Source of the DNA: an uncultured Verrucomicrobiae bacterium
GTDB lineage: Bacteria > Verrucomicrobiota > Verrucomicrobiia > Chthoniobacterales > UBA10450
Direction of reading: 5' to 3'
DNA length: 64,000 nucleotides
NCBI GenBank assembly: GCA_963772365.1
Contig: CAVYXA010000001.1
Location: forward strand, 224,001-288,000
Part shown: piece after piece, positions 42,001 through 45,000 of the stretch
Position numbering within the stretch: position 1 is the stretch's first letter
Layout: every line of letters begins with the position of its first letter
Program-made: the position numbers

Positions 42001-45000
42001 ATCGGTTGACAACCGGGAACATCAGCGGTGTGACGTCTTCAATCTGCGGGTTTGTGATGAGGCTAAGAGCCTCGACCGCGGCTGCGTAGGCTTCACCGGC
42101 TCTCAGATATGCATCGCGACGCAGATTCAGTAGGCGATCCTCGCGTTGTTCTTTGCGGTTCACTGCCAATCCGCGCATTACGCCAACAAATGCTAGGAAG
42201 CCTGTTACAAGCGCCGCGCTTGCACCGATTAGCGCCGCGCGTGTTTGCGGATCCTCGATTAAATCCGACCACGCGGTCGCGAGGCAATGCATGCTAGCCC
42301 TATCCCGGCAGAGGAAATCGCCGCGTCATCTCGCGCACTTTATCGCGGACGCGATTCAAGGCGGATTCGTCCGCGCGATCCGTTAGGGCTTCGGCAATTA
42401 GATCGGAAATCTCGAGCATTTCTTCTTCGCGCATGCCGCGCGTGGTCACGGCGGGGGTGCCGACGCGGATGCCGCCGGGTTTGAAGGGCGAGCTGGTGTC
42501 GAAGGGGATGGCGTTCTTGTTCACGGTGATCCCGGCGCGGTCGAGCGTTTCCTGGGCGTCTTTCCCGTTCAGATCCTTCGGGCGAAGATCGACAAGCAGC
42601 AGGTGATTATCGGTGCCGCCGGAAACGATGCGGTAGCCGTGCTTGGCCAGACCGGCCGCGAGCGCCTTGGCGTTGATCACGACCTGTCGCTGGTAATCGC
42701 GGAATTGCGGCTGGAGCGCTTCGTGAAAGCAGACCGCTTTGGCCGCGATCACGTGGATGAGCGGGCCGCCTTGAACTCCCGGGAATACGGTGGCGTCGAT
42801 CTTTTTCGCGAATTGTTCCTGGCACATCACGATGCCGCCCCGCGGGCCCCGCAGACTTTTGTGCGTTGTCGTTGTTACAAATTGCGCGTGCGGAATTGGG
42901 CTCGGATGCTGGCCACCGGCGACAAGTCCGGCAATGTGCGCCATATCGACGAACAAGAGCGCGCCTACCGAATCCGCGATCTGGCGCAATCGTGGGAAAT
43001 CGATGATGCGCGAATACGCTGAAGCACCGGCGGTAATCATTGCCGGCTTCACTTCCTCGGCTTGTTTTTGCAATGCATCGTAATCGATCCGCTCCGTTTT
43101 CTCGCTGACGCCGTATTGCGAAACGGTGTAGAACTTCCCGGAAAAATTTGCCGGATGACCGTGGGTGAGATGCCCGCCATGGGCGAGATTCATGGCTAGA
43201 ATTTTGTCGCCCGGCTTCAGCATCGCGAAATAGACGGCCATGTTCGCCTGCGCGCCGCTGTGCGGTTGCACGTTCACGTGATCGCAGCCGAACAATCGCT
43301 TCGCCCGATCGATGGCCAATTGCTCGGCAACATCGACATTCTCGCAGCCGCCATACCAACGCTTTCCCGGCAGGCCTTCGGCGTATTTGTTCGTTAAACA
43401 AGAGCCTTGCGCTTCCATCACCGCGCGGCTGGCGAAATTTTCCGAAGCGATCAGCTCAATGTTTTCCCGCTGTCGTTTTTCTTCGGCTTGAATGGCATCG
43501 TAGATTTCGGGATCCGTTTTGCGCAAAGCGCTGCCGGAAATCGATGTCGATCCTGTGGCTTCGATCGGTTGAGGGAAATCGCTCATGAAACAGGGAGTTG
43601 CCCGACTCGTTCGCGAGGTGGGAGCAAGCTCGCCTTGTTCTACGAACGAGAGCACGCTTGGTAAAGTGTTTTTGATCGTGCGCGCGCAGTCTTCGTAAAC
43701 TTCGCGGCCGAGCCCGATCGGATCCGGCACATCGCGCCACACCGTTGTTCCGGGCTCTTCAAATTCGCGCAACAGATATGATTTCTCGGCACCCTTTGGA
43801 AAAAGAAGATGAATGGTTTCCAAATGTGCGCCGGTCATGGCGAAAATATGGGTGGCGCGATCAACCAATTCGGCGGTAAGCGGCTGACTTCGGAACCCTC
43901 TGATATCTGTGCCTTCGGCTTCACACACTTCAATCGCATACAAGCTCGGCGGCTGTCCGCGTACGGCGTGGACGCCGGCAGATGCGACTTCGATGTCCTT
44001 GCGATTGCCAAGAAAACTCCGGAAAAGCCCTTCAGCAATCGGACTTCGGCAGATGTTTCCGGTACAAACAAAGAGGACGCTTTTCATGGTCGAATGCCCT
44101 GCCTGCGGACAGAAGTTCAACCTAGGATCGAAGATGGCCAAGTCAATTTGCTGGCTACTGAGCGTCGCACTGCGAATCGGTGGGAATTTGCGGCTTCGCC
44201 GATCTGTTTAGCATCGGTCCGAGCCGGACTGGCATATCGGAGAAGCCGATCCACCTTTCCGTTTTGAGGTGGAACGCGTTGTCCCAACGCGTTGATAAAC
44301 AACCCGCTGCAGGCGCCGAATCATCCAACTGCGGATTCCAGTTTGCTTGTGCAGCGTCGCAGAGGGATCTTGCGCCTTCGGCGGTTGGCCCAACATCGCC
44401 TTCGGAGAAGCCGATCCACCTCGTTGAATCGCAAGAAATAGTTGGCGAATCGCAAGCGCTGCGTGGCCTCTCGATCCCAATCAAACGACGATAAGATGAA
44501 TGAAAACGGCTTCATCAGCCTGGCCTCGCATTGCCCGAATTCTGGAAAGACATCCAGAAGTGAAACAGGTCCGGGTCGACACCGATGGAAGAAAAGTGGC
44601 GGTCGGTTTTTACGAAACGCCATCCGACGAACTGATTGATCGCGTCAAGGCGATTGTGGGCGACGAACTATCGGGGCAATGGGATGTCTCGGTTAATTCC
44701 TTCGATGCGCCAGCCAATCTCCACTTTCACAAGATCAACGGTCATACCACCGAATTTCATCGGGCCCACCCTGCCAATGAGCCGAGATTGATCTGGCGCG
44801 AGCTTCGCATTCCGGCATGGCGCAATCGTCCTTACCCGCCGGCGGTCGAGCGGGATTATCGCGTGATGCTTTTGCTCGCCGGGACTTGCGGGCTCAGCAC
44901 GCTGGCAGGTTTTCTACTGGGCCGGGCCGAATCGGGCGTGCAATTCATCGGAACGCTCTTTGCAATCGCTTACGTGGCTGGCGGATGGTTTGCCATCCAG

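Follow-up and report, generated by a model that had tools for sequence, protein, structure and literature searches.

Two kinds of described relatives stand close to the gene studied here. One consists of the cysteine phosphatases YwlE (Bacillus and Geobacillus) and PtpB (Staphylococcus aureus). A published passage on S. aureus places ptpB directly upstream of glyA, and a section of PMC8001253, citing Fuhrmann et al., states that a Thr at the YwlE/PtpB P-loop position steers the enzyme to phosphoarginine (pArg), the change from Thr to Ile raising the activity on phosphotyrosine (pTyr) and pNPP and lowering that on pArg. The same section names a D-P-Y triad as a feature of the acid loop. The other is Minf_1669 of Methylacidiphilum infernorum V4, which a passage of Hou et al. 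(2008, Biol Direct 3:26, PMC2474590) presents as a protein of three domains, low-molecular-weight (LMW) phosphatase, RpiB and serine hydroxymethyltransferase (SHMT). An earlier note on the present DNA had drawn attention to the joining of an LMW phosphatase to SHMT; going by that passage of PMC2474590, the architecture is not new in kind, since its three-domain parent has been in print since 2008. A literature search found no paper describing the two-domain form and, on the three-domain form, turned up only this 2008 passage.

Here, we have analysed this two-domain form in a stretch of 64,000 nucleotides (the window) from an uncultured Verrucomicrobiae bacterium. For brevity, L, R and S denote the phosphatase, rpiB and glyA parts, respectively, so that LS is the two-domain and LRS the three-domain protein. 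Minf_1669 and the window protein have phosphatase and SHMT domains in common, in the same order, on one polypeptide and in the same phylum; of the 61 genomes surveyed from the window's order, 16 have orthologous LRS proteins. The two differ in that Minf_1669 has an RpiB domain, whereas the window protein has a short disordered linker in its place and rpiB is a separate gene.

The gene is predicted to encode a genuine two-enzyme protein, with a housekeeping SHMT at its C terminus and a phosphatase of the YwlE clade, catalytically intact as judged by its residues, at its N terminus (Table 1). This agrees with the earlier description of an intact LMW-PTP domain, a linker and a full SHMT on a single ORF of 595 aa, which both the Pfam matches and the catalytic motifs bear out. 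The longest frame in the ORF listing (42300..44141, minus strand) gives 613 aa from a TTG, whereas the ATG at 44087 gives 595 aa; the latter is favoured as the start because homologues begin at the same M/V-K-x-[VI]-L-F, which is their common start. PF02502 (RpiB) had no match in the 595-aa protein by Pfam. Among the 30 LS proteins compared, the linker was hypervariable and unalignable, with a length of 9-50 residues (about 35-45 in the window protein); it is predicted to be flexible and disordered, residues 155-184 having a pLDDT below 50 in the AF2 model. The promoter scan found no promoter-like site at the fusion gene and one weak terminator-like site upstream of it. The neighbouring genes were a P-type ATPase and ORFs without a family match, and no BY-kinase adjoined the fusion gene.

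Table 1 Features of the fusion gene in the window (positions count from the first letter of the window)
Feature	Position	Strand	Basis or remark
Whole CDS, L-S fusion protein, 595 aa	42300..44087	(-)	Single open frame; Pfam LMWPc and SHMT on one ORF; stop at 42300-42302
LMW cysteine phosphatase domain (L), YwlE-like by sequence, residues 4-142	43662..44078	(-)	PF01451 (LMWPc), profile 1-140 of 144, E 1.5e-26
P-loop C8-T-G-N-I12-C13-R14-S15	44043..44066	(-)	Putative nucleophile Cys8, with Arg14; specificity position I12
Acid loop D119-V-P-D122-P-I-G125, putative general acid Asp122	43713..43733	(-)	Aligns with DPFG of YwlE and DPYG of 4egs
Inter-domain linker, residues 143-187, S/T/P/A-rich, predicted unstructured	43527..43661	(-)	Unalignable among LS proteins; low pLDDT
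Met168 ATG within the linker	43584..43586	(-)	Possible internal start or relic of the glyA start codon
SHMT domain (S), residues 188-595	42303..43526	(-)	PF00464, residues 188-564, profile 1-399 of 399, E 6e-171, 568.9 bits (cut-off 27); NCBIfam NF000586, residues 192-593, 646.9 bits (cut-off 335)
Lys410 codon, PLP-binding lysine of the TTHK motif	42858..42860	(-)	Invariant in 30/30 LS proteins

The fusion gene was the sole SHMT match in the genome (3.35 Mb, 90% complete), as the earlier note had also found in calling it the only glyA. Its SHMT part is well conserved, with a mean column identity of 76% over 68 relatives. The other TTHK residues (T407, T408 and H409) were as invariant in the 30 LS proteins as K410, and this lysine is known from SHMT enzymes to bind PLP. 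Compared with bacterial GlyA (about 415 aa), the window protein is alike in its full-length match, in keeping the PLP lysine and in being the only copy in the genome, and differs by an N-terminal extension of 187 residues, namely the phosphatase and the linker.

The N-terminal domain, modelled by AF2 with a pLDDT of 88-96 over residues 1-110, is assigned to the LMW cysteine phosphatase superfamily (PF01451) on the basis of a C-X5-R-(S/T) P-loop near the N terminus and a D-P acid loop. Nine residues (C8, N11, C13, R14, S15, P16, D122, P123 and G125) were invariant in all 68 aligned L domains, and I124 in the 30 LS proteins. The best PDB sequence matches of L were 4egs (3.3e-21), 4pic, which is the arginine phosphatase YwlE (1.3e-20), and the further YwlE entries 1zgg and 4kk3 (2.3e-16); the three YwlE entries outranked the Wzb, PtpA and ArsC chains. 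By these matches, the phosphatase is YwlE-like rather than an arsenate reductase. With YwlE and PtpB it shares a C-X5-R-S P-loop with a second Cys, the D-P acid loop, whole-domain sequence similarity (E 1e-16 to 1e-20, 4egs ranking above), the gene position upstream of rpiB/glyA and the presence of McsA-McsB-ClpC in the genome. It differs from them in being fused to SHMT and not free, in having Ile rather than Phe or Tyr after D-P, and in position 5 of the P-loop, where the Thr of the YwlE/PtpB type was not found in the window protein, which has Ile12. By the rule given in PMC8001253, the L domain leans away from pArg on account of this residue. Across the 68 L domains, the same position was occupied by Ile in 38, Thr in 15, Val in 13 and Ser in 2. 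The domain is not a classical pTyr enzyme either. Wzb, Etp and PtpA, the classical LMW-PTPs, have the fold family, the catalytic residues and an Ile or Val at P-loop position 5 in common with it, whereas the window domain is far below the cut-offs of the NCBIfam equivalogs for such enzymes (64.9 vs 247 bits and 48.4 vs 243 bits), has D-P-I-G in the acid loop without the D-P-Y triad, and has no BY-kinase alongside.

We surveyed 61 genomes from 16 families of the order (G000 included). The LS arrangement was found in 39 of them, 38 with a continuous, stop-free match to residues ~1-594 and one (G114) with both parts in a 606-aa frame; another genome, G216, had the same arrangement with three stops. 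In 16 genomes the arrangement was LRS, 15 having both parts in frames of 729-795 aa and G430 being of the same kind but cut by the contig end, and L and S lay in separate frames in the remaining five. In two families, f5 and f72, which fall inside the LS group, the fusion has reverted to two genes. LS was kept, along with McsB, in genomes of 0.9 Mb. The figures that the earlier note gave for 20 genomes, including its order-wide occurrence down to 0.9-Mb genomes, agree in kind with this survey. The longer frames (739-795 aa) that it reported were likewise seen, and what it called extra sequence is an RpiB domain. Outside the survey, both Pfam domains (LMWPc and SHMT) occurred together in over 120 database clusters, with identities of 83-88%. 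When residues 1-280 were used as the query, the best 150 matches were mostly gene fragments of 115-390 aa.

The gene string L-R-S is conserved across Verrucomicrobiota and occurs fused as LRS, RS and LS. All 12 long frames tested were LMWPc+RpiB+SHMT, all eight frames of 560-680 aa were RpiB+SHMT, and Pfam matched RpiB in 14 of the 15 LRS-length frames of the order; Akkermansia muciniphila is the label of a further record with an LRS protein. The order L then R, with or without S behind it, recurs in records that carry the labels Bacillota, Desulfovibrio, Planctomycetota, Lentisphaerae and Pontiella, and the same phosphatase is found elsewhere as a free protein or as a fusion with RpiB-SHMT or with Sua5/TsaC. 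Four genomes had a weak middle domain (60-120 bits), each together with an intact stand-alone rpiB (175-189 bits). In G402, where two rpiB genes stand alone, the 745-aa frame had no RpiB match at E<=0.01. The window genome gave no match to RpiA, and its stand-alone rpiB lies on another contig. In the trees, LS rows are mixed in among LRS rows. A single clade of 34 R-less rows against 20 LRS rows was rejected (AU p 0.0016, dlnL 81.4) in a test run with LG+G4 on a quick tree, the group having been named after the first tree was inspected, and the free tree needs four changes. Starred branches force at least two changes for LS in the first quick tree; in the AU-test tree they alone force no more than one. 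Since the R-less forms are not one clade and decaying R domains stand beside intact rpiB genes, LS most likely derives from LRS through the loss of R, the direction (loss and not gain) being inferred. An old operon string, (tsaC)-ywlE-rpiB-glyA, would have had its members fused repeatedly in PVC bacteria; LS would most likely have come directly from a three-domain phosphatase-RpiB-SHMT protein, whose middle domain, with a stand-alone rpiB present, would have decayed and been deleted more than once in the order. The series from LRS through LRS with a decayed R to LS and to split L and S illustrates cleanly, inside a single order, how a domain is lost and a gene is split.

With regard to a possible kinase partner, the window genome has a McsA-McsB-ClpC string in which McsB scores 440 bits (cut-off 385) and the flanking genes are McsA-like and ClpC-like. 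McsB was present in 60 of the 61 order genomes, including both of 0.9 Mb, and among further genomes with a YwlE-like L it was found in 3/3 and 8/10, compared with 1/14 control genomes. This co-occurrence is non-discriminating because the genomes are related and McsB is near-universal in the order. Together with the fusion, the near-universal McsA/McsB/ClpC points to protein quality control by arginine phosphorylation in Verrucomicrobiota, where it is not known to have been studied.

Beyond the anatomy of the protein, its conservation, the evolutionary series and the co-occurrence with McsB, all of which were observed, the phosphatase would work in trans on proteins. Its likeliest role would be that of an antagonist of the genome's McsA/McsB arginine kinase, with phosphoarginine proteins as the presumed substrate; phosphotyrosine made by the three BY-kinase-like proteins of the genome may be an additional or an alternative substrate. 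The fusion would then mainly secure co-expression with an essential, highly expressed gene and not a direct chemical coupling to one-carbon metabolism. It looks like an opportunistic joining of operon neighbours, because the linker is hypervariable and disordered and the phosphatase elsewhere is free or has other partners. We regard the explanation as a whole, that is, a two-enzyme protein descended from LRS whose phosphatase acts in trans on proteins and is co-expressed with SHMT, as reasonably probable. The fusion is a natural 'Rosetta stone' that links a YwlE-like phosphatase by function, or at least by expression, to the rpiB-glyA string far from Firmicutes; taken alone, it shows no new link between one-carbon metabolism and phosphorylation.

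Several other explanations were weighed against it. That an assembly or frameshift artefact joined two genes has next to no probability: the assembly was termed error-prone in the earlier note, and a few relatives have stops (G216) or separate genes (families f5 and f72), but the frame is free of stops in 39/61 order genomes and in database clusters of independent origin, so that the statement of that note that the fusion is no indel artefact holds. Its suggestion that the N-terminal domain might be arsenate-reductase-like fared less well. A thioredoxin-coupled arsenate reductase (ArsC) has the fold superfamily and the P-loop in common with the domain and gave weak NCBIfam matches (E about 1e-9), but ArsC models scored only 36-38 bits against cut-offs of 158-215 (TIGR02691, 37.9 vs 174.3). 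The window protein has no cysteine at the places of the second and third redox cysteines of ArsC; C8 and C13 were the only invariant Cys, and none was found in residues 80-95. In addition, two genes of the ArsC type, both with a CxxNSARS loop, lie elsewhere in the genome, one within an arsR-channel-arsC string, and the fused domain is the genome's only LMWPc match that is not ArsC. The sub-cut-off scores, the missing extra cysteines and the separate ArsC-type genes all speak against this identity, which we rate as extremely improbable. A further reading, compatible with the explanation preferred above, is that one gene gives two products, Met168 being an internal start from which free SHMT is made besides the fusion. 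Although the linkers cannot otherwise be aligned, 27 of 30 LS proteins have an ATG Met 6-21 residues ahead of the SHMT domain; given the frequency of Met and the length of the linkers, and with relatedness ignored, 13.4 such proteins would be expected. The Met is absent from three LS proteins, including both from 0.9-Mb genomes, and an SD-like motif preceded the linker ATG in 1/30; this test is blind to an internal start because true 5' starts also had such a motif in only 1/30. Met168 may just be a remnant of the start codon that glyA once had, and the frequency of the linker Met fits another origin of LS, by read-through from L into an adjacent glyA whose start codon was kept. On this evidence, two products have a minor chance.

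The remaining readings concern what the phosphatase does. The earlier note had predicted a functional coupling of one-carbon metabolism to phosphatase activity, and in its direct form the tethered phosphatase would act on SHMT or a bound partner, removing a regulatory or degradation-marking phosphate, so that phosphorylation controls one-carbon flux. The L-S link is indeed the part retained upon loss of R (39/61 order genomes) and is kept together with McsB in the 0.9-Mb genomes, and Ile or Val prevails over Thr at the specificity position in fused domains (46/55 fused vs 5/13 unfused; 20/22 vs 9/58), which could mark a change of substrate. However, the association of Ile/Val with fusion was not significant on six independent pairs (about 2.7 the same way, 0 opposite, p about 0.25), the linker varies from 9 to 50 residues and is predicted to be disordered, the protein was split back into two genes in f5 and f72, and the same phosphatase is free, RpiB-SHMT-fused or Sua5-fused elsewhere. 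Such a coupling is distinctly unlikely. A complex prediction of two SHMT copies with the L domain (68-row alignment each), run without controls, gave a score of 0.00, which counts neither for nor against it. Instead of serving as a protein phosphatase, L might be a small-molecule phosphatase tied to the chemistry of its neighbour enzymes, with a sugar phosphate or pyridoxal phosphate as its substrate, for instance; certain members of the LMW family can bind PLP and FMN or hydrolyse them slowly. Its fusion partners (RpiB, SHMT and Sua5) all belong to one string and are enzymes of metabolism or housekeeping, and both the Thr of the arginine phosphatases and the Tyr found in the D-P-Y triad are missing from it. 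Against this, protein arginine phosphatases are its closest characterised relatives, the McsB co-occurrence is strong and no result points to a metabolite substrate, which makes this role very unlikely. Finally, the fusion may have altered the role of the phosphatase, through the change of Thr to Ile/Val and the lack of an acid-loop aromatic, so that it would act on some new target around SHMT (the enzyme itself, a client bound to it or a phospho-metabolite, for example PLP) instead of simply reversing McsB, with the internal Met setting the ratio of free to fused enzyme; this we consider unlikely.

Two database observations may be added. A record labelled Bifidobacteriaceae (L097), with a 4.3-Mb genome, contained an LRS protein and a McsB gene; a mistake in labelling or binning is suspected here. 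In the Atlas, an LMWPc+SHMT cluster of 627 aa has 50 members, of which only 10 are of known phylum, Actinomycetota being the commonest.

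Judged from its sequence, the glyA product of the window is a real, conserved and bifunctional fusion of a low-molecular-weight (LMW) phosphatase and serine hydroxymethyltransferase (SHMT), the latter being the only SHMT match in the genome (3.35 Mb, 90% complete). Its ATG was preferred over a TTG located 18 codons upstream because homologues share the start M/V-K-x-[VI]-L-F. Pfam placed an LMWPc domain at residues 4-142 (E 1.5e-26; profile 1-140 of 144) and a complete SHMT domain at residues 188-564 (E 6e-171; profile 1-399 of 399), and the protein reached 646.9 bits with the SHMT model of NCBIfam (cut-off 335). 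Both the phosphatase P-loop (C8-T-G-N-I-C-R-S15) and the acid loop (D-V-P-D122-P-I-G) were intact; C8, N11, C13, R14, S15, P16, D122, P123 and G125 were invariant in an alignment of 68 phosphatase domains, as was K410, the PLP lysine of SHMT, in 30 two-domain proteins. An AlphaFold2 model built on these 30 sequences had a mean pLDDT of 80.9, with 88-96 in the phosphatase domain and <50 at residues 155-184. The linker varied from 9 to 50 residues among the 30 proteins and could not be aligned between families.

The earlier note had held that the fusion is not an indel artefact, and its recurrence bears this out. Both domains were found on one protein in >120 database clusters at 83-88% identity, named as serine/glycine hydroxymethyltransferase of Chthoniobacterales, Candidatus Udaeobacter or Verrucomicrobiota, and protein-atlas clusters with SHMT and LMWPc had 382, 63 and 143 members. 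Sixty-one genomes spanning 16 families in the order, the window genome among them, were sampled: 38 showed a continuous stop-free match to residues ~1-594; 15 carried the two parts in a longer frame (729-795 aa), one further long form was cut by a contig end (G430), one genome (G114) had a single 606-aa frame, another (G216) had one frame with three stops, and five had two separate frames. Both 0.9-Mb genomes of the order, one of which the note had already cited, kept the fusion.

Coordinates of the features discussed (window positions, or positions within the named locus)
Feature	Position	Strand	Remarks
Phosphatase-SHMT fusion CDS	window 42300-44087	-	one open frame, 595 residues counted from ATG 44087
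Met168 in linker	window 43584-43586	-	ATG; other cases in L006-L078 linkers
531-aa ORF adjoining fusion gene	window 39879-41474	+	no Pfam match at E<=0.001
265-aa ORF adjoining fusion gene	window 41495-42292	-	no Pfam match at E<=0.001
Phosphatase-spacer-SHMT protein of relative G402	L047:890-3124		745 aa; spacer 148 residues
Sua5/TsaC-LMWPc fusion, then rpiB or rpiB-glyA	L130:1128-2294, L146:1879-3525, L148:2374-3465
ArsC-type LMWPc paralogue, CxxNSARS loop	L002:1474-1896	-
ArsC-type LMWPc paralogue, CxxNSARS loop	L003:1435-1935	+	after ArsR-like regulator and MIP/aquaporin-like channel gene; outside window
McsA-like (163 aa), McsB (371 aa) and ClpC/ClpB-like string	contig C2, L038:1-3597		outside window

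The extra sequence noted in the longer relatives is a predicted RpiB domain: of the 15 frames measuring 729-795 aa, 14 matched RpiB in Pfam. When residues 1-280 of the window protein were searched against 401 genomes of the phylum, numerous SHMT matches fell in open frames of either ~560-630 or ~720-820 aa. Among 20 frames of these two classes analysed for domains, all 12 long ones comprised LMWPc, LacAB_rpiB and SHMT, and all eight shorter ones RpiB and SHMT, with a separate phosphatase gene directly upstream in four. The phylum thus displays the full series of one gene string: three separate genes, phosphatase followed by RpiB-SHMT, the three-domain protein, the two-domain protein, and separate phosphatase and SHMT genes. 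This string is old. The 80 best-matching phosphatase-domain loci among named genomes included records labelled Bacillota, Desulfovibrio, Planctomycetota, Lentisphaerae and Pontiella in which rpiB, alone or with glyA behind it, comes after the phosphatase gene; the two-domain form occurred in only seven records of these 80, labelled Chthoniobacterales, Udaeobacter, Spartobacteria, Chthoniobacteraceae or Verrucomicrobia. The phosphatase fuses to its upstream operon neighbour as well: in Planctomycetota and some others it forms the C-terminal part of a Sua5/TsaC protein whose gene is followed by rpiB (the tabulated records are labelled Planctomycetaceae, Fermentithermobacillaceae and Verrucomicrobiota). 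In Staphylococcus aureus, ptpB has been reported just upstream of glyA.

A phosphatase-RpiB-SHMT protein, Minf_1669 of Methylacidiphilum infernorum, was described in a 2008 genome paper (PMC2474590). The window protein is best read as a reduced variant of a published fusion family common in the phylum. The note was right about a real and conserved fusion, whose three-domain kin have been in print since 2008; its interpretation holds in part. The literature searched yielded no paper on the two-domain form and no biochemical work on any family member.

We read the two-domain protein as the three-domain one minus a redundant middle domain, lost more than once, because of several observations. Two- and three-domain rows interleaved in a quick SHMT tree (72 rows); the free phosphatase+SHMT tree (54 rows) needed four changes, and a single clade of the 34 rows lacking RpiB was rejected by an AU test (dlnL 81.4, p 0.0016; LG+G4, quick search, with the tested group named after the first tree was seen). 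Weak RpiB domains (60-120 bits vs 170-195 for intact ones) were present in three-domain proteins of four sister-family genomes, each of which also had an intact stand-alone rpiB. G402, with two stand-alone rpiB genes, had no RpiB match at E<=0.01 in its spacer, where low-complexity repeats of the HSTQ type occur. In the window genome, rpiB stands alone on a different contig, and RpiA gave no match. What pulls against loss of the RpiB domain is a methionine that looks like the start of a formerly separate glyA: although the 30 linkers do not otherwise align, 27 of them have an ATG 6-21 residues ahead of the SHMT domain, vs 13.4 expected (relatedness ignored). This Met could be a start codon relic, or an internal start still used; SD-like motifs preceded one of 30 linker ATGs and one of 30 true 5' starts. 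In the quick SHMT tree, the two-domain group enclosed families f5 and f72, which have separate phosphatase and SHMT genes; these, together with G216, are read as secondary fission.

With regard to the phosphatase, PDB sequence matches (4egs, 3.3e-21; 4pic, 1.3e-20; Bacillus subtilis YwlE, 2.3e-16) placed the domain nearest to YwlE-type protein arginine phosphatases by sequence, with Wzb, PtpA and ArsC chains ranking lower, and no NCBIfam equivalog cut-off was reached. The arsenate-reductase-like activity proposed earlier is not supported, because ArsC models gave 36-38 bits (cut-offs 158-215), only C8 and C13 were conserved among the cysteines of the 68 domains, and the two other LMWPc matches of the genome, both outside the window, are distinct ArsC-type genes. 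Since those two are ArsC-type, no YwlE/LMW-PTP-type phosphatase other than the fused domain was found in the genome. Its McsA-McsB-ClpC string, whose McsB scored 440 bits with NF002194 (cut-off 385), resembles the arginine-phosphorylation quality control of Gram-positive bacteria. Of the 61 genomes sampled in the order, 60 carried an McsB-type kinase, the two of 0.9 Mb among them; so did three of three further Verrucomicrobia-type genomes, and 8/10 genomes of other phyla holding a YwlE-like gene vs 1/14 control genomes. The two without it among these ten both have Ile at the specificity position, a number too small to carry a conclusion. Three BY-kinase-like proteins of the window genome exceeded the cut-off, so phosphotyrosine substrates probably exist too.

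Thr at P-loop position 5 of YwlE/PtpB is reported to direct the enzyme to phosphoarginine, a Thr-to-Ile change there raising pTyr/pNPP and lowering pArg activity (PMC8001253). The window protein has Ile12 at this position, and Ile after D-P in place of Tyr of the D-P-Y triad or Phe of YwlE; thus, the domain fits neither textbook class cleanly. Among 68 relatives, position 12 was I in 38, V in 13, T in 15 and S in 2, with I/V in 46 of 55 fused forms and T in 8 of 13 unfused ones. The named genomes, a set ordered by similarity to a query with Ile and containing related rows, had I/V in 20/22 fused vs 9/58 unfused forms. Across six phylogenetically independent pairs, the association with fusion was not significant (~2.7 the same way, none opposite, p ~0.25).

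The note had also predicted coupling of one-carbon metabolism to phosphatase chemistry. That the linker is disordered and hypervariable, that fission has recurred and that the phosphatase also has other fusion partners instead argues for operon neighbourhood and co-expression. Our best reading is that the domain would act in trans as a protein phosphatase, a partner of the McsB system and possibly of BY-kinases, its predicted substrate being left ambiguous by Ile12.

Several side observations were made on related architectures. In family f9 of the same class (L012-L016), phosphatase and glyA are separate genes that share a reading frame, interrupted between the two by one or two stops, and the phosphatase loop reads CTANICRS or CTGNICRS. 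A record labelled uncultured Bifidobacteriaceae (L097) encodes a three-domain protein with a phosphatase part 51% identical, in a 4.3-Mb genome with an McsB gene; its label or binning looks doubtful. We know of no description of the architecture of P0148, a 1679-aa database protein that combines five tandem LMWPc domains with a PEP-utilising mobile domain and a PPDK_N kinase-like domain. Finally, the fusion gene is flanked by a divergent P-type ATPase, a GH57 enzyme and the two ORFs without Pfam match, so the window provides no functional context for it; the 265-aa ORF is on the strand of glyA, and its edge lies 8 bases downstream of that gene's stop codon.
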